Source: Escherichia coli O157:H7
Lineage (GTDB): Bacteria; Pseudomonadota; Gammaproteobacteria; Enterobacterales; Enterobacteriaceae
Assembly: GCF_013167455.1 (NCBI RefSeq)
Contig: NZ_CP038328.1
Reading direction: 5' to 3' (one strand)
DNA: 64,000 nucleotides
Part shown: one piece after another, positions 2,643 through 63,451 of the stretch
Position numbering within the stretch: the stretch's first letter is position 1
Layout of the letters: each line of letters opens with the position of its first letter
Program-made: the position numbers and the translations under genes
The notes under the pieces: generated by a model
The model's database searches: none
Seen by the model: the letters and a program-made list of their open reading frames with translations, nothing else
Told to the model about the DNA's origin: nothing

Positions 2643-3110
2643 ATGATTAAAGACGCGATTTTTTCACCGTGCGGTAAGTATCGCTACTCGTTATCACGAG
2701 TCTGGGACGAATCAAAACCGTATACCCTTTTCATAGGGCTAAACCCTTCATACGCCGATGCCGAGAAGGATGATCGCACCTTGAGCCGCTGCATATCGTT
2801 TGCCAAAAGCTGGGGCTACGGTGGCGTATACATGGCCAACCTGTTCGCATTCGTTCACACCCAGCGACATGAAATGATGAAAGCGTCTGATCCCATTGGC
2901 AAAGATAACGATAGCCACTTGATACGTCTTGTTAGCGGTGCCGGACTGGTTGTCGCCGCATGGGGAAATGAAGGAAGACACCTCAAACGCTCAACGACCG
3001 TCCGACAGCTATTGCCAGAGAGCACAATGTGCTTCGTCTTAAACGCTACAGGTGAGCCGAAGCACCCTTTGTATATGAAAAACGACAGTGTTCTCATACC
3101 TTTAGGTTAA
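2643..3110 (+). CDS. DUF1643-family protein (155 aa), function unknown
   Basis: Translation (FSPCGKYRYSL...FIGLNPSYAD...) resembles DUF1643 proteins; AGGA RBS before ATG; followed by a 9-bp stem hairpin at 3120-3143. Confidence 0.65.
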   Translation: MIKDAIFSPCGKYRYSLSRVWDESKPYTLFIGLNPSYADAEKDDRTLSRCISFAKSWGYGGVYMANLFAFVHTQRHEMMKASDPIGKDNDSHLIRLVSGAGLVVAAWGNEGRHLKRSTTVRQLLPESTMCFVLNATGEPKHPLYMKNDSVLIPLG

Positions 3111-4113
3111 CATCGATAACTGCGTTCAGAATATGAACGCAGCCATATGATATATATGACTTTTCTTTAAAATGATGGTGTGCTAGCTTCTCTCCTGACA
3201 CCTACCTCATGCGGTAAACCGGTCCGGGTAGGTGGAGATCACCGCTGTTTAGCGGAAGACGTCAGGATGGGAACTCTGCGTAACGTTGATTGTGGTAGGT
3301 AGGGCGCGCAAGCGTTTGATGCAGCCAAGCAGAGGGTGAAAGTAGCTATCGGCGGATTCTTAAGTAGCTTCTTTTGCGCATAATGCATCTTTCAAGAAAG
3401 GTCGTCACACCACGAGGAAGACTTGATCTTCATCTGGCAAGGGGAACCGAGCAAACCTACAGGCTATCTTCTCAGATGGCCTTAGGGTTGATATGTCCGG
3501 CTTCCCCCCCGAGGAAGGGTTTACATCTTAAAGAACAAGTTATGTTTTAACATTTTTAACAATTACACTTCTCTGCTGTTTGGTGTCTTATGGCGTTCCC
3601 GTCAAAAGTAAAGCTGCCGTTTTTACCTCACATGCGTAACAACCAAACACGAACCAGAAGCTGCTAACGTTCAACGTGTTCGCGGTGTAAATGCAGCCGG
3701 ATAAGTTGGGAGCGAAAAAGTGGATGTCCTAGGTTTGGAAGCGCCCCTCTTAAGCATTGCATCCGATAATTTCCGTGGCGGTGAGACAGTCCTTATAGAG
3801 GCAATCAGCCTCCAAAGTTAAGCGACGCGGTAAAACTAAAGCTCGCCCAGATTTCTCATTGATTGCTCGAACTCCGCTACGCTTGTTTCAACTGGCTTCA
3901 CCAGTCACTCTATGAGAGCGCCGCGAATTCTGCACCATGATTTCGACTACCTTCTTTAAAACACTCGCCAGAGAGCCTTACAGCGCGTTTGAACCGCATA
4001 TCGCAGCTTCTGCTTACGGATGACTGTCTGATTAGCAGTAGCTTCATGGCCCAGTCCGGTTTACTTTATTGCTATCAACTAGGAGCCGCCCAAGGGCAAC
4101 ACGGAGATAACGC

Positions 4114-4446
4114 TTGAGAACCGTCGAAATACTGCAATACACCTTACGCAAAGGCAGCGGTGCCGCTTTTCACGCCATAATGCAGGAAATCAGTGTTCCC
4201 CTACACCAAAGCCACGGGATCGATGTTGTTTCGTTTGGCAACTCGCTTGATGACCTGGATTGCTACTACTTGATTCGCGCCTTTGACAGCGCTAAAAGCA
4301 TGACTGCGGTTCTCGATGCTTTTTACGCAAGCGCAGACTGGCGCAGCGGCCCACGCGAAGACATCATTGGCAGCATAGAGAACTGCATTAAAACAGTGAT
4401 TAGCCTACCATCAGAAAGCGTGAAAGGGCTGCGGATGCAATCGTAA
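4114..4446 (+). CDS. NIPSNAP-like small protein (110 aa), TTG start
   Basis: ORF bounded by an in-frame TAA at 4108-4110; GGAG 9 nt upstream of TTG; sequence resembles NIPSNAP/Dabb-like small proteins. Confidence 0.45.
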   Translation: MRTVEILQYTLRKGSGAAFHAIMQEISVPLHQSHGIDVVSFGNSLDDLDCYYLIRAFDSAKSMTAVLDAFYASADWRSGPREDIIGSIENCIKTVISLPSESVKGLRMQS

Positions 4447-4567
4447 GTAATCAAGTGTATTAGCTTAGATTTGACCTAAACAGCTTTGTGCCAAAAGTGG
4501 ACTAGGAAAAGCCTAGCGATAAAGAGTTGAGTTTAATAACTACTAACTGAAATTTAATGGGTGATAT

Positions 4568-4945
4568 ATGAATTTAGATGAAGAATTTTACGAATTACAA
4601 AAACTCTTTGCTCAGAAGGATCTACTGACTGAGAAAAGACGCTCTAGTGGCGGCGGATTCATGGAAATTCTCTTGGTGAAGAGACAGAACATGAAGATAA
4701 AAATATATCAAGAAAAAGGACATCAACTTCCCCATATTCATATTGACTATGGAAAACAAGCGCATGCTGCCAGTTATGCCATACAATCAGGAGACCGCAT
4801 AGAGGGAGATTTACCTAAGAAATATGATAGTGATGTTTCGAGTTGGTTGGGGAGAAATCGTGATAAAATTTTAGAAATCTGGAATGCACTACAAGCTGGC
4901 GCACCTTATGAACCACTAATCGCAGAATTGACTGGCGGAGTGTGA
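4568..4945 (+). CDS. DUF4160-family protein with ~30-aa N-terminal extension
   Basis: Core ...KIKIYQEKGHQLPHIHIDYGKQ...GDLPKK...W... matches the DUF4160 signature (HxPHFH...Y.G); start uncertain (internal Met at residue 42 is an alternative). Confidence 0.5.
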   Translation: MNLDEEFYELQKLFAQKDLLTEKRRSSGGGFMEILLVKRQNMKIKIYQEKGHQLPHIHIDYGKQAHAASYAIQSGDRIEGDLPKKYDSDVSSWLGRNRDKILEIWNALQAGAPYEPLIAELTGGV

Positions 4946-5127
4946 CTAACTAAATAATTTTCCCCTAAAAAAATTCGATGTAGGAAAATATATATAAGTA
5001 AGAATCATGAGTGTCCGCTCCTCGCTCAAGGCGGACTGTTAGACTTGATTGTATGCTGTCAGAGAAAACCGTCAGATCAATTCTGTGAACCGCCCCGGGT
5101 TTCCTGGAGAGTGTTTTATCTGTGAAC

Positions 5128-6018
5128 TCAGGCTGCCAGATCATCGTTTCCGATGGAAGCATAATAAGCTTTTTCTGCTTCTGCCGGAGGAGTATGGCCC
5201 AGCCTTCCCAGCAATCGTCGATTGTTATACCAGTCCACCCACGTTAGTGTGGCCAGTTCCACTTCTGCACGGTTTTTCCAGCTCTTACGGTGTATTACCT
5301 CCGCTTTGTAAAGACCATTGATGCTCTCAGCCATCGCGTTGTCATACGAGTCGCCTGTACTCCCTGTTGATGCCAGTAATCCGGCTTCTTTTAGTCGCTC
5401 CGTATAGGCCAGTGACACATACTGAGAGCCTTTATCGCTGTGATGGATGGTGCCAGACGGACGACGGGCCCACAACGCCTGCTCCAGCGCATCCAGCACG
5501 AATGTCGTTTCCATAGACGATGAGACCCGCCACCCCACGATGTATCCGGCAAACACATCAATGATAAACGCCACATAGACGAAGCCCTGCCATGTGCTGA
5601 CGTAAGTAAAATCAGCCACCCACAGCTGGTCAGGTCGTTCTGCCACGAACTGACGGTTTACGCGGTCGCCTGCGGCAACGGCTTTCCGGCTGATGGTCGT
5701 ACGGACCTTTTTACCCCGGAGAACACCGGCAAGTCCCATAACCGCCATGAGACGTGCCACTGTACATCTGGCCACCCTGATTCCTTCCCGTAACAACTGA
5801 CGCCAGACTTTACGCACACCGTACACCTGATGATTTTCATCGTATACGCGCTGTATCTCTCTCTTCAGCCAGTCGTCGTGCTGCGCACGGGCACTGCGTT
5901 TATCCGGATGATGTCGCTGTTGCTGACAATGGTAATACGTTGACGGGGCAATATGCAGTTCGCTGCATACCGGTCCGACCCCGTACTGCTCACGCAGCTT
6001 ATCCAGCAGTGGCATCAT
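5128..6018 (-). CDS. IS3-family transposase OrfB (integrase/DDE catalytic domain)
   Basis: 296-aa ORF with DDE-transposase features (..WVADFTYV.. / ..HSDKGSQY.. / ..DNAMAES..), overlapping OrfA in the -1 frame. Confidence 0.85.
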
Positions 6019-6341
6019 TTTTTCCAGAGGCGGTCGAACTCCGCCTTCGCAAAATAAGCGGAAGCCTGGCGAAGGATATCGTTACTGCGGCGCAGTTCAC
6101 GATTTTCACGTTCCAGCTCTTTCAGACGCTGACGTTCAGCGCTGGTGAGCCCACCATCACCGCCCCCGGTATCCCGCTCATGCTGGCGAACCCAGACACG
6201 CAGAGTCTCCGGCGTACAGCCAATCTTTGGGGCAATGGAACAAATTGCCGCCCACTGTGAGTCATATTCATCCTGACTTTCCAGAACCATACGAATCGCC
6301 CGCTGACGGACTTCGGGGGAAAAACGAGTATTTTTAGTCAT
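6015..6341 (-). CDS. IS3-family transposase OrfA (HTH / leucine-zipper part)
   Basis: 108-aa [22 protein letters not shown]... ending in the A-rich slippery region CTGGAAAAAATGA that overlaps the OrfB start. Confidence 0.85.
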
Positions 6342-6392
6342 CCTGTTTACCTCTTTCTCAGGGAGTTTAGTCTCCAGGATTTCCGGGGCGGT

Positions 6393-8366
6393 TCACTTTC
6401 TTCGCAGCGCATCTCTTACAGCATCCAGCCCATCAGGAATGTTGAATCTCGCTATCTCGGGCAAAGAAAAATCAATCTTTTCGACAACCTCAACCATGTG
6501 AACCGGTTTTAAATCTTTGCTGTATCGCACTTCAGTTTCTGTTTTGCCTCGCACATGCCCAAGTAGCTGCCCACGCAGTTCCGAACTAACACCCTTCTCT
6601 TTAAGCAAAGTTGAAACAGAATGCCGGAAAGAGTGGAAAGATTTGCTTCTGTCTCTTTCAAGTTTTAATCGACCCGCAAGCAATGATTCATTGAACCATG
6701 CGGAAACCGGCCTACCATAGCCTTTGGTTTTATGTGGTTTAAGCTCGGGAAAAAGACGGTCATACCCGGCAGCTTTCAACGCATCCACATACTCGATAAA
6801 ACCGAGTTCAATCAGCGTAGAATGAACCGGAATCTTGCGGCGGGAATTGGCGTTTTTTAGTTTCTTTCCGTTTTCGCTATCGCTTTCAAGGTTCAGGTAA
6901 TAAACGCCGTCATCTGCCAGAACATCGTCCAGCATTAACTGTGCAATCTCGTTAACCCTTGCCCCCGTCATCAAGCCCAACAACGGCGCCCAATAGTGAA
7001 ACGGGCAATATTGATGGAATCGCCCTTGCGCATTACGTTCAACAGTTCCAGCGACAAACCACGGTTGCGAAAAAATTGCCTTAATTTCATGCGGTTCAAA
7101 TATGTCAGTGTGATCCTGCTCTCGCTCACCTTTGTCATCGGGAGGGAAAAAGTTGTCGCATGGCGATTTCAGAAACTTACCATCATCAACAGCCCACTCC
7201 ATTGCACCATAAAGGCCGTTGATATACTTTTTGACAGACTCTTCTGTCATCAGTTTATCGCCACATTCTGCCGCTTTGGCGATTAACTCATCCAGCGTCT
7301 TAACCCCGTGCTTACCTTTCATCAAATTACGGTTAGCAGGAATTGTGCGCAACTTGCTCTCATAAGCCCGGAGGAAATCACGGTCGAAATCTTCCAACTG
7401 AATATCCCCCATCACTTCAATCATCAAATCGAAGTAATAGCGAATATCGCGGAGCGCCGCTTCTGATACCTTGCCCTTACGTCGATGTTTCAAATACTCT
7501 TCACGAAGCCATGACAAGTTTTCATTGTAATGTTTGCGGTGAACATATTCATTAGCGATAACAGGAGCGACAAGAGGCACGGCAGGGTGAATGCTAACTG
7601 CTGGTGGCGTGGTCTTAACCAGCCATGTAAGTCGAAGGCCTTCAGCATGAACTTTGCTAATCAACAGGCTATCAGCAGTTATATCTACGCCGGGTAAATC
7701 GAAGAACCAACCTCCACTTTGGTTATCACCACTAGTTCGAAATGCAGCCTCTCCTTCGGATACTCCAGCGCTCAACAGACAATCTAAAGTATGCCGGGGA
7801 TTGAAGGGGCGGAGATAACCATTTGCGAAGCTCTCGATACCCAGCTCAAACGCGCTATTGAGAATGATGACTTCTTTAGGTTGATCCTTTTCATCATCAG
7901 ACTGTTTTTCTCGTTTTGCACCCGGTTCCCGCTCTACTGCATTAAATTCATCAACATAGAAACCGAACTGACCAGTCGCCAGCCAGAATACCGGGAGGTT
8001 ACGATTAACCACCTCTCGAATCAATTGCGATATAGGCAACTCGATTGATTGAGCAAAGTTAGAAAGCGAGATCATACCCTCACCAGCAAGCAGTGGGGCG
8101 CAGTCACTTAAAGTTCGATAATCCAATTGTTCATACTCTTGTAAGGTCTGATACCAGACCGCCAACAGGAGCGCGGACTTCTGCTTTGCTTCATGAAGAT
8201 CGTGAGTGCCTGTTGAAGTGTGAATCTCACACTGTCCTGCGTATCGACGAAAACGTTGGGGAACGCTAATGCGGACAACATAAATGCCGCTGGTTCGACG
8301 ATAGAGTTTATATCGCTGAGACATCGCCTCGTATACCCTTTTGTAAGAGGGGCTACGCGATTTCAA
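6393..8366 (-). CDS. Tyrosine-type site-specific integrase (657 aa) of the leuX island
   Basis: C-terminal catalytic signature (R...HSFRHS...HVRGKTETEVRY); same strand as and immediately 3' of tRNA-Leu; stop codon coincides with the last 3 bp of the IS element. Confidence 0.85.
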   Translation of the reverse strand: MKSRSPSYKRVYEAMSQRYKLYRRTSGIYVVRISVPQRFRRYAGQCEIHTSTGTHDLHEAKQKSALLLAVWYQTLQEYEQLDYRTLSDCAPLLAGEGMISLSNFAQSIELPISQLIREVVNRNLPVFWLATGQFGFYVDEFNAVEREPGAKREKQSDDEKDQPKEVIILNSAFELGIESFANGYLRPFNPRHTLDCLLSAGVSEGEAAFRTSGDNQSGGWFFDLPGVDITADSLLISKVHAEGLRLTWLVKTTPPAVSIHPAVPLVAPVIANEYVHRKHYNENLSWLREEYLKHRRKGKVSEAALRDIRYYFDLMIEVMGDIQLEDFDRDFLRAYESKLRTIPANRNLMKGKHGVKTLDELIAKAAECGDKLMTEESVKKYINGLYGAMEWAVDDGKFLKSPCDNFFPPDDKGEREQDHTDIFEPHEIKAIFSQPWFVAGTVERNAQGRFHQYCPFHYWAPLLGLMTGARVNEIAQLMLDDVLADDGVYYLNLESDSENGKKLKNANSRRKIPVHSTLIELGFIEYVDALKAAGYDRLFPELKPHKTKGYGRPVSAWFNESLLAGRLKLERDRSKSFHSFRHSVSTLLKEKGVSSELRGQLLGHVRGKTETEVRYSKDLKPVHMVEVVEKIDFSLPEIARFNIPDGLDAVRDALRRK

Positions 8367-13952: not shown

Positions 13953-15467
<1,515 letters not shown>

Positions 15468-63262: not shown

Positions 63263-63451
63263 TTCTCCACCTCGTCTCTGTGAGCGGTGTTAACTTATTG
63301 TTTTACTTATACCCTATCATTAATGAATGCGCCAACTGTGATAGTGTCATCATTTTCAAAGCGTAAAATTGTGGCATTCTTCACTGTTCTATAAGTAAGA
63401 CGTTTATTCTCCCTTTTCTTTCGTATTCCCGATGATAAAAGGATGTCCCTG

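Follow-up and report, generated by a model that had tools for sequence, protein, structure and literature searches.

A strongly constrained, RNA-like noncoding cassette in an unannotated gap of a tRNA-Leu island of Escherichia coli O157:H7

The gap and the island that contains it

The DNA analysed here (the window) is a stretch of 64,000 nucleotides from Escherichia coli O157:H7 (contig NZ_CP038328.1), and the subject of this report is a gap at positions 3111-4113, between a DUF1643 gene and a NIPSNAP-like gene. As stated in the initial annotation, which was made from the sequence alone, no open reading frame (ORF) with a length of at least 60 aa reaches into the gap on either strand. The longest ORF has 58 aa (3374-3550, TTG start), the longest stop-free run comprises 60 codons (3368-3547), and the frequent stop codons described there are seen in every frame. 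The sequence is indeed not of low complexity, with a guanine-cytosine content of 0.46-0.50. All three inverted repeats that had been named are real, with small slips in their coordinates: the first is CTGCGTTCA-GAATA-TGAACGCAG at 3120-3142, in which one T had been counted twice, the second is CACCTACC/GGTAGGTG at 3199-3206/3227-3234, and the third is CTTCC-CCCCCGA-GGAAG at 3501-3517.

Of 5426 complete E. coli genomes, 660 carry the gap. In 583 genomes at least 80% of it is present in one place, in every record listed it forms a single co-linear piece, and it is 100% identical to the corresponding sequence of EDL933 (NZ_CP008957.1 5,400,435-5,401,437, reverse strand) and of many other O157 genomes. 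No RefSeq annotation lies under the gap in any E. coli record listed. The Rfam scan that had been suggested for it upholds this picture: Rfam 15, run over the whole window at gathering thresholds, has no match within 3111-4113, and with permissive filters and E values up to 10 the sole hit in 2900-4400 is a 13-bit chance match to a eukaryotic snoRNA. No tRNA was found in the gap, and searches of the literature for the leuX island, OI-172/SpLE6, DUF1643, DUF6538 and the EcOnc small RNAs (sRNAs) yielded nothing about the region.

The placement of the gap inside an island is confirmed. In O157 it lies in a 10.2-kb integrative island at tRNA-Leu(CAA) (leuX), bounded by a 26-bp direct repeat of the 3' end of the tRNA. 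Sister islands, found at tRNA-Leu or tRNA-Gly, are 6.6-9.7 kb long with direct repeats of 18-28 bp; the comparison set comprised about 55 loci (numbered L below) from E. coli genomes, one representative genome per species, and metagenomes. The common layout is tRNA, tyrosine integrase, variable cargo, serine recombinase and helix-turn-helix (HTH) regulator, and the backbone consists of four genes, for the integrase, the small serine recombinase, the HTH regulator and a small hypothetical protein. A serine recombinase had been noted nearby. The small recombinase at 1881-2450 is such an enzyme, of the invertase/resolvase type, but the large integrase of about 650 aa that adjoins the tRNA has the domains Phage_integrase and DUF6538 and is a tyrosine recombinase. 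In the half that carries the HTH and serine-recombinase genes, protein identity between islands is 80-97%. Cargo occupies slots between the backbone genes and includes DUF1643, NIPSNAP, DUF4160, DUF6602 (PD-DExK/NucC-like), Shedu, AIPR, AbiJ-like, HNH and NUDIX genes and several unknowns; in O157, all cargo genes flanking the gap lie on the plus strand. The islands code for their integration, have no recognisable transfer or replication genes, and are nearly absent from viral-contig collections.

The gap is a composite of a constrained cassette of about 340 bases (A1), near-neutral backbone DNA, the leftover of a deleted gene and the leader of a cargo gene. Its modules are the following:

3111-3189, plus strand: module L, which flanks the DUF1643 gene on its 3' side and contains a 9-bp hairpin at 3120-3142
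3190-3535, plus strand: cassette A1, a constrained noncoding cassette and candidate structured RNA
3536-3688, no strand assigned: spacer, AT-rich and near neutral
3689-3803, plus strand: core, present in every island, with a micro-ORF at 3720-3821
3797-3880: B2, which contains the p71 stump at 3839-3880
3839-3880, minus strand: remnant of the p71 gene, its last 14 codons, with the stop codon at 3836-3838
3884-3991, no strand assigned: module C, integrase-proximal sequence that fits a former p71 upstream region
3992-4113, plus strand: NIPSNAP leader, which travels with the NIPSNAP cargo gene

The gap is therefore not a 1-kb RNA. Part of the empty kilobase is ordinary, being neutral backbone DNA and a gene stump, and roughly a third is taken up by a new RNA-like cassette under strong constraint, which is widespread among E. 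coli genomes and carries no annotation in any of the records examined. In other islands, the slot of A1 is occupied by the gene of a 338-aa protein (L005, L007, L010, L022) or by a second noncoding module, A2 (L008, L012, L016, L019, L020).

Conservation and predicted folding of cassette A1

The mean pairwise distance between distinct copies of A1 over 3236-3530 is 0.046, compared with 0.17-0.21 in the immediate flanks. With the synonymous distance in island genes (0.26-0.56) as the yardstick, it can be seen that A1 has diverged 5-10 times more slowly than its flanks and the synonymous sites of neighbouring genes. Between O157 and C5 (L002) the distance is 0.02 over 3236-3530 and 0.25-0.32 in the flanks, and among E. 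coli genomes 3111-3620 is at least 99% identical in 551, while the adjoining 3620-3900 is only about 90% identical in 304. When metagenome copies are included, 22 distinct versions of A1 are known with 83-98.5% overall identity; the central block is nearly invariant in all of them, and the boundaries of the conserved block are identical in independent copies. A1 is found with at least four integrase types, beside varying neighbours and in several genera of the Enterobacterales, which form its taxonomic range; its location is always in an island of this family, with a constant orientation and a distance of about 377 nt to the core downstream. Its carriers include EDL933 (NZ_CP008957.1 5,401,013-5,401,358, with the plus strand of the window on the minus strand of that record), Sakai-type O157:H7, Nissle 1917, 042 and ATCC 25922. 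Searches with nhmmer revealed no relatives of A1 in the islands that lack it.

A1 is noncoding. There are 2-7 stops in every frame and stops in all six, frameshifting indels separate the copies at about 3431, 3453 and 3505, and entropy is flat over the three codon phases (0.08, 0.11, 0.09), without 3-base periodicity. Open stretches of 30 aa or more have no match in PHROGs or NCBIfam. By these results, a protein gene or a recent pseudogene finds no support in A1, and what is conserved in the cassette is a noncoding sequence under strong constraint.

The gap had been described as dense in hairpins. Any excess over chance varies between its segments, with modest folding z-scores of -2.2 for 3190-3545 (plus strand) and -2.8 for 3430-3530, values of about 0 or above for 3545-4113, and coding controls ranging from -1.7 to +1.6. 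In every sub-window of A1 (3190-3545) the folding energy is lower on the plus strand. The predicted elements are listed here:

3199-3207/3226-3234, plus strand: helix P1
3242-3246/3251-3255, plus strand: helix P2
3302-3307/3312-3317, plus strand: hairpin capped by a GNRA tetraloop at 3308-3311
3336-3349/3364-3377, plus strand: helix P3
3414-3421/3427-3434, plus strand: helix P4
3441-3507, plus strand: P5

Between P3 and P4, the stretch 3375-3413 shows hardly any variation, and most of it is predicted to be single-stranded. The hairpins around it are conserved, and many of the changes they have accumulated respect the pairing. P1 exists in three fully complementary versions (CACCTACC/GGTAGGTG, CATCTATC/GATAGATG and CATTTATC/GATAAATG), and the closing pair of P2 is seen as U:A, A:U and G·U. 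The tetraloop occurs as GCAA, GAAA and GUAA, with variation only at the N of GNRA. In P3 a C:G pair has changed to U:A, and in L017 the helix is a perfect one of 17 bp. The P4 stem, GAGGAAGA/UCUUCAUC in O157, is AAGAGAA/UUCUCUU in L017, a different sequence in which the pairing is kept. P5, within a segment of -39.7 kcal/mol (3440-3535), has changed in pairing-preserving ways throughout. About 10 of the 74 pairs of A1 are G·U, which become A·C mismatches if the cassette is read on the minus strand.

These changes were counted against shuffled alignments and against controls in which the structure was slid along the sequence. With 8 copies, 98.5% of cells are paired, a percentage inflated because the structure string was derived from O157 itself. 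Four pairs are changed on both sides in these copies, a number that 3 of 500 shuffles reach, and the covariation score is 0.041 against 0.026 (0 of 500 shuffles); with 21 copies, five pairs are changed on both sides (0 of 500 shuffles). These shuffle counts are not probabilities, because the sequences are related. The slid controls gave 0-2 such pairs with 8 copies and 0-3 with 21 copies. Changes on both sides are concentrated in P1, P2 and P3. In one alignment the row of L018 is shifted and consists mostly of gaps, and in another comparison a row of L017 with wrong coordinates was disregarded. A metagenome copy, L038, has a 17-nt tandem duplication (AGATGGCCTTAGGGTTG) inside P5, which is either a real variant or an assembly artefact and was left out of the pair counts.

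The best reading of A1, held with moderate confidence and drawn from the comparison of its copies, is that of a previously undescribed candidate structured RNA on the plus strand. The large structured noncoding RNA proposed by the initial annotation finds moderate support here for the approximately 340 nt of 3190-3535, from the sequence constraint, the compensatory changes in hairpins, the GNRA loop that varies only at N and the G·U pairs that are possible only on the plus strand; for the whole kilobase it does not. The composite make-up of the gap, the constraint on A1, its lack of a conserved reading frame, the conservation of its hairpins and the gene remnant are observed, while the transcription of A1, its strand, its ends and any function are what we infer. 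A fuller interpretation, in which the gap is composite and A1 is a plus-strand structured RNA carried as accessory cargo of the island, has in our judgement about an even chance of being correct.

According to this interpretation, A1 would have a plus-strand transcript, co-directional with the flanking cargo genes, that either starts at a weak promoter-like site of module L (ATGACT-17-TGTGCT, 3156-3184) or arises by read-through of the DUF1643 gene. The site was recognised by eye (ATGACT at 3156-3161, a 17-nt spacer and TGTGCT at 3179-3184), and a promoter in module L is at most presumed, as the consensus scan gave no canonical promoter or terminator there. Module L also precedes the 338-aa gene in other islands. 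The transcript would then fold into a chain of hairpins, P1-P5 and the GNRA-capped one, around the invariant single-stranded 3375-3413. As accessory RNA cargo, A1 might use this segment, presented on the hairpin scaffold, for sequence-specific contacts with a protein or a nucleic acid. If A1 is such an RNA, a strongly constrained and undescribed transcript of about 340 nt has been left unannotated in much-studied E. coli strains, and noncoding cargo in the slots of defence-type islands becomes directly testable.

Besides the two limits on the counts given above, several observations weigh against an RNA. The folding z-score of the whole conserved block (3236-3530) is only about -1, and other copies do not preserve the long-range helices that the energy-minimum fold predicts. 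Variable columns are equally common in stems and loops (24% vs 23%), and several single changes break pairs. The centre of A1 is too invariant for covariation, and most of the compensatory changes are found near the 5' edge, in P1 and P2, and stem from a few lineages. The consensus scan found neither a canonical promoter nor a canonical terminator in the gap. Finally, a catalogue of island sRNAs from Hfq cross-linking in enterohaemorrhagic E. coli, searched by locus names only, mentions nothing at the locus.

Module A2, known elements and alternative explanations for A1

The other noncoding occupant of the slot, A2, is a candidate RNA gene of about 240 nt (L008 4479-4716; also in L012, L016, L019 and L020). 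It is conserved over E. coli, Enterobacter, Kosakonia and Yersinia ruckeri. Its first half (L008 4479-4716) folds with -89 kcal/mol and z = -3.5 on the plus strand, compared with -57 kcal/mol and z = -0.3 on the minus strand, and 13 variable pairs stay canonical. A promoter-like TTGMAC-16-TACTAT precedes it, and it ends in an intrinsic terminator with a U run, the stem changes of which are compensatory between species. About 150 nt of further conserved noncoding sequence follow. Rfam finds only tRNAs in the sister islands, A2 included, and no relatives of A2 were found among phages, plasmids or viral contigs. Like A1, A2 lies in the slot between recombinase-side cargo and core, is noncoding and highly conserved across genera, has a plus-strand-specific fold and is without an Rfam match. 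A2 differs from A1 in its clear intrinsic terminator and its promoter-like site, neither of which A1 has, and in a much stronger strand asymmetry. The two modules have no detectable homology; by eye, the second half of A2 had seemed to resemble the 3' part of A1, but nhmmer gave no match at E values up to 10. If A2 is taken as evidence that the slot can hold RNA genes, the RNA reading of A1 would by analogy gain in plausibility.

ROOL, GOLLD, HEARO and STAXI are large or medium-sized structured noncoding RNAs on mobile elements that were found by comparative genomics. A1 resembles them in its length of several hundred nucleotides, its position on a mobile element near an integrase and a tRNA, its conservation without a reading frame, and its multiple hairpins, including one with a GNRA loop. 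It differs in that it has no Rfam 15 match even at E values up to 10 and in its narrow range, the Enterobacterales. Because its copies show very little sequence diversity, its support from covariation is much thinner than theirs.

Small integrative elements and satellites are known to contain cargo hotspots in which anti-phage genes are exchanged. The islands described here are similar to such hotspots (cf. PMC11551731, PMC12632615) in being integrated at tRNA genes, flanked by direct repeats and built on a conserved backbone, and their slots likewise hold Shedu, AIPR, AbiJ-like, HNH and PD-DExK/NucC-like genes and unknown genes beside a small serine recombinase. In contrast to those hotspots, a noncoding cassette can here take the place of a protein gene in one slot, and the islands are almost absent from viral contigs. 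A broader proposal would be that A1 and the unrelated A2 belong to an unrecognised class of interchangeable RNA cargo cassettes, which share a hotspot of small tRNA-integrated islands with anti-phage protein genes; we regard this as tentative and rather unlikely. The RNA itself would then be the accessory function: it might act against phages or helpers, for instance, or hijack a helper element so that the island spreads. Should the proposal be true, the class would be present in about one ninth of the complete E. coli genomes, O157:H7, Nissle 1917, 042 and ATCC 25922 among them.

Among the explanations of A1 other than an RNA, the one that survives best, and is still unlikely, is a cis-acting site of single-stranded DNA, that is, an origin of transfer or a single-strand replication origin that would serve a helper plasmid or a phage in mobilising the island after excision, with A2 as the version for another helper. 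The islands lack recognisable transfer and replication genes, and some cis mobilisation site would therefore be expected on them; A1 has no canonical promoter or terminator, and the degree of its conservation is very high, a trait of transfer origins of one family. Single-stranded DNA origins are also known to form hairpins that are strand-specific and contain G·T pairs, and stable G-N-(N)-A loops, which speaks for this explanation as well. Against it stands that A1 shows no blastn similarity to 72,556 plasmids and 50,697 phages and no match among viral contigs; the plasmid search, with 11-base words, returned only two plasmid-borne island fragments, which match the core and not A1. Moreover, iterons and repeats resembling nick sites are missing from A1, many islands of the family carry a protein gene or A2 in its place, and A2 bears the marks of an ordinary RNA gene, as it is preceded by a promoter-like site and ends in an intrinsic terminator with a U run.

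Other types of DNA site were considered and rejected. The initial annotation had proposed a recombination or replication site, for which there is no positive evidence. An invertible segment or a res site of the serine recombinase was set aside, as no inverted repeats flank the region and its orientation to recombinase and integrase is the same in all loci. An iteron-type replication origin was likewise dropped: 3111-4113 contains no repeat family beyond chance two-copy matches, and the AT-rich sequence at about 3530-3570 is present and not conserved. A mimic of the origin of transfer of a known plasmid was rejected for want of any A1 match among the plasmids searched.

A long, cis-acting structured leader, 3' untranslated region or intercistronic element of the cargo operon, which would control how the downstream micro-ORF and cargo are translated or how stable their message is, in place of a free-standing RNA, is a quite unlikely explanation of A1. 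The constant orientation of A1, its fixed position about 377 nt upstream of the core and micro-ORF, the plus-strand direction of all flanking cargo genes in O157, the absence of a detected terminator or promoter of its own, and a hairpin after DUF1643 that is not followed by a T run are all in keeping with it. However, the spacer between A1 and the micro-ORF is neutral and non-folding, and the micro-ORF itself is doubtful. Downstream of the core, NIPSNAP, a gene called hyp190, p71 or directly the integrase may follow, and there is therefore no constant gene to be regulated.

That A1 has no function, and owes its low divergence to a recent sweep or to repeated gene conversion of a neutral segment, is in our view improbable. 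The islands are mosaics with frequent exchange of modules, their integrases swapped and their cargo replaced. In the C5 locus (L002), A1 resembles a recombination tract, being 98% identical to O157 (p-distance 0.02) over 3236-3530 and fully identical over 3261-3350 and 3381-3500 between diverged flanks; in addition, variable columns are no rarer in stems than in loops. However, the block is conserved in every lineage sampled, including the copies of 83-85% overall identity, several genera and the metagenomes, its boundaries are the same in independent copies, and the changes within it are not random, falling at the N of the GNRA loop, in compensatory stem positions and in loops.

Decayed protein genes or unannotated small proteins as the content of the whole gap, A1 included, are highly improbable. 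The explanation applies to the p71 stump at 3839-3880, most copies of the core have an open frame of 33 aa, and the p71 gene was itself missed by annotation. However, A1 combines stops in six frames, frameshifting indels, a lack of codon periodicity and no PHROGs or NCBIfam hit for stretches of 30 aa or more with being the most conserved segment of the island, unlike decaying DNA, and the ratio of nonsynonymous to synonymous distance (pN/pS) of the 33-aa frame, 0.61-0.64, is the same as that of its antisense frame.

Remaining modules of the gap and side observations on the island

Module L, to the left of A1, is highly divergent (mean 0.20, maximum 0.51). Its hairpin and a downstream motif of the 'TATGCT' type recur at the left edge of the slot, both where the gene before them is DUF6602 (L002) and where the slot is occupied by the 338-aa gene (L005, L007, L010, L022). 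To the right of A1, the spacer at 3536-3688 diverges at about the neutral rate (mean 0.17-0.21, maximum 0.27-0.43), its folding z-scores are positive, and the helices predicted in it are broken in other copies.

The core (3689-3803) was present in all 20 distinct copies first collected and was at first taken for the functional centre of the gap. An all-pairs scan of 19 distinct copies on both strands found no stacked covarying pairs in it, and its consensus-fold z is -1.95 on the plus strand and -0.7 on the minus strand. In one plus frame nearly all copies read VDVLGL.APLSGIA..NF.GG...LI, which in O157 corresponds to a GTG-initiated ORF of 33 aa (3720-3821). Of the 22 copies that have the start motif, 20 keep the frame intact and two are frameshifted; five further copies are without the motif. 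The synonymous distance (pS) of this micro-ORF is 0.31 and its nonsynonymous distance (pN) 0.19-0.20; four control frames have pN/pS of 0.84-1.07, and real island genes have 0.09-0.25 at a pS of 0.26-0.56. No protein family and no phage sequence searched by tblastn matches the micro-ORF, and a pattern search with the core found one viral contig. With an equivocal pN/pS, no family and no phage hits, the micro-ORF was rejected as a clear small gene, and its coding status is doubtful.

A structured RNA or a strongly selected site in the core was rejected on the covariation scan, the consensus-fold z and the synonymous calibration. The divergence of the core is close to the neutral rate of these young islands, and the core is alignable backbone DNA under weak constraint at most. 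It can be seen from this case that conservation in all islands may simply mean that sequences have not yet diverged, which became visible only after calibration with synonymous sites. A junction of cargo lies at 3797 (TCCTTAT|A), where at least five unrelated right-hand sequences join at exactly that base. It could be caused by site-specific exchange of cargo, by a promoter boundary or by the end of the micro-ORF. A hypervariable patch of 7 nt is located just upstream of 3797, and on the minus strand the junction reads TATAAG, similar to a -10 element. Type I toxin-antitoxin loci share with the core a short unannotated ORF in an intergenic region and a -10-like TATAAG hexamer on the opposite strand at a conservation boundary. 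The core differs from them in that its peptide lacks the hydrophobicity of a membrane-spanning segment, a pN/pS of about 0.6 indicates little constraint on the protein and no conserved RNA structure was found, and it was not classified as such a locus.

The segment 3839-3880 is a remnant of p71. This 71-aa gene lies on the minus strand between core and integrase and has been kept intact in seven islands (L005, L009, L011, L012, L015, L018, L022) and in several metagenome loci. In L005 it lies at 5172-5387 and begins MLMATYRQIADDVKSRTGRTVKTCWIAHVK. A tblastn search with this protein finds full-length copies of 95-100% identity in the seven islands, only residues 58-71 in the window, L001, L003, L004, L017 and L021, and residues 54-71 in L008. 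The stump in the window, VAEFEQSMRNLGEL, corresponds to residues 58-71 at 93% identity and retains the stop codon (3836-3838). The intact gene has a pN/pS of 0.09 and matches phrog_27283 over its full length (E = 9e-19). Its homologues form 83 clusters, from Enterobacterales to Deltaproteobacteria, all named 'hypothetical'; no match was found in Pfam, and no relatives among phages, plasmids or viral contigs. By eye, the N-terminal half of p71 resembles an HTH of the LuxR/GerE type, for which Pfam finds nothing. Annotation has omitted p71 from the E. coli island records examined, which means that a widespread gene has been missed there.

The highly decayed pseudogenes that had been proposed for the gap are thus real for roughly 3839-3991, by the p71 stump at 3839-3880 and, by position, for 3884-3991. 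For the remaining gap they are not supported, as no open stretch has a match to a protein family. Module C (3884-3991), which fits the former upstream region of p71, is 72-85% identical to the sequence that abuts the integrase stop codon in other islands, where p71 lies on its other side. Its counterpart there holds AAAAAACGCGCC...GGCGCGTTT, a hairpin followed by a T run on the integrase strand, of which O157 has a degenerate integrase-terminator copy at about 3957-3989. Module C and the integrase are no longer adjacent in O157, where the NIPSNAP gene, the DUF4160 gene and IS1203 lie between them.

The last module, 3992-4113, moves with NIPSNAP: 3968-4200 or 3878-4200 matches L016, L018 and L019 beside their NIPSNAP genes, and one hit (H60) covers positions 847-1003 of the gap as query, on the side of the NIPSNAP leader. 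There is no folding signal in 3992-4113.

Several observations concern the island as a whole. The integrase module (6393-8366 of the window) has been swapped between islands, with at least four types at 79%, 43-45%, 36-37% and 31% identity to that of O157. The target tRNA, Leu or Gly, switches with the integrase type, while the other backbone proteins stay 80-97% identical. In the divergent region between the serine recombinase and DUF1643, a motif TGCC(A/G)GAAAA(C/G)(G/C)... occurs three times (2473-2487, 2505-2517, 2560-2575) and is kept in all aligned islands; these copies could be binding sites of the recombinase or of the HTH regulator, in a res-like or operator region. The DUF4160 cargo protein (4568-4945) matches the NCBIfam model of the type II toxin DhiT with E = 6e-13 and 49 bits, the cut-off being 100, and the gene may be toxin-like. 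Between this gene and the integrase, O157 has a copy of IS1203 (IS3 family) at 5085-6396 with 26-bp terminal inverted repeats, which the sister islands are without. Within it, at 5944-6060, lies an ALIL frameshift pseudoknot (Rfam RF01497).

Unusual arrangements were seen at a few loci. In L022 (Citrobacter sp. NCU1), two units of core plus module C (oriented coordinates 2320-2704 and 4126-4703) flank the 338-aa cargo gene; this could result from a partial tandem fusion of two islands, or the unit may be capable of duplication together with cargo. L010 (E. fergusonii plasmid pTB31P2) is an island fragment between IS1 copies, adjoining MobH/MobI genes. L011 (E. coli plasmid pCP53-92k) is also a fragment, in which the core is cut off at the position corresponding to 3727 of the window and adjoins resistance genes. 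Islands of the enterobacterial type were found in L017 ('Martelella alba', labelled an alphaproteobacterium) and in L021 (a 'Collinsella' metagenome-assembled genome, an actinobacterium), the latter E. coli-like; these host labels probably reflect contamination or mis-binning and not true hosts. Elsewhere in the window, and unrelated to the gap, the Rfam hits (14514-14708, 32411-32526, 63329-63451 and others) comprise the Ysr276 antisense RNA, an Mg riboswitch, ES239, STnc450, ES036 and five naRNA4/REP elements.

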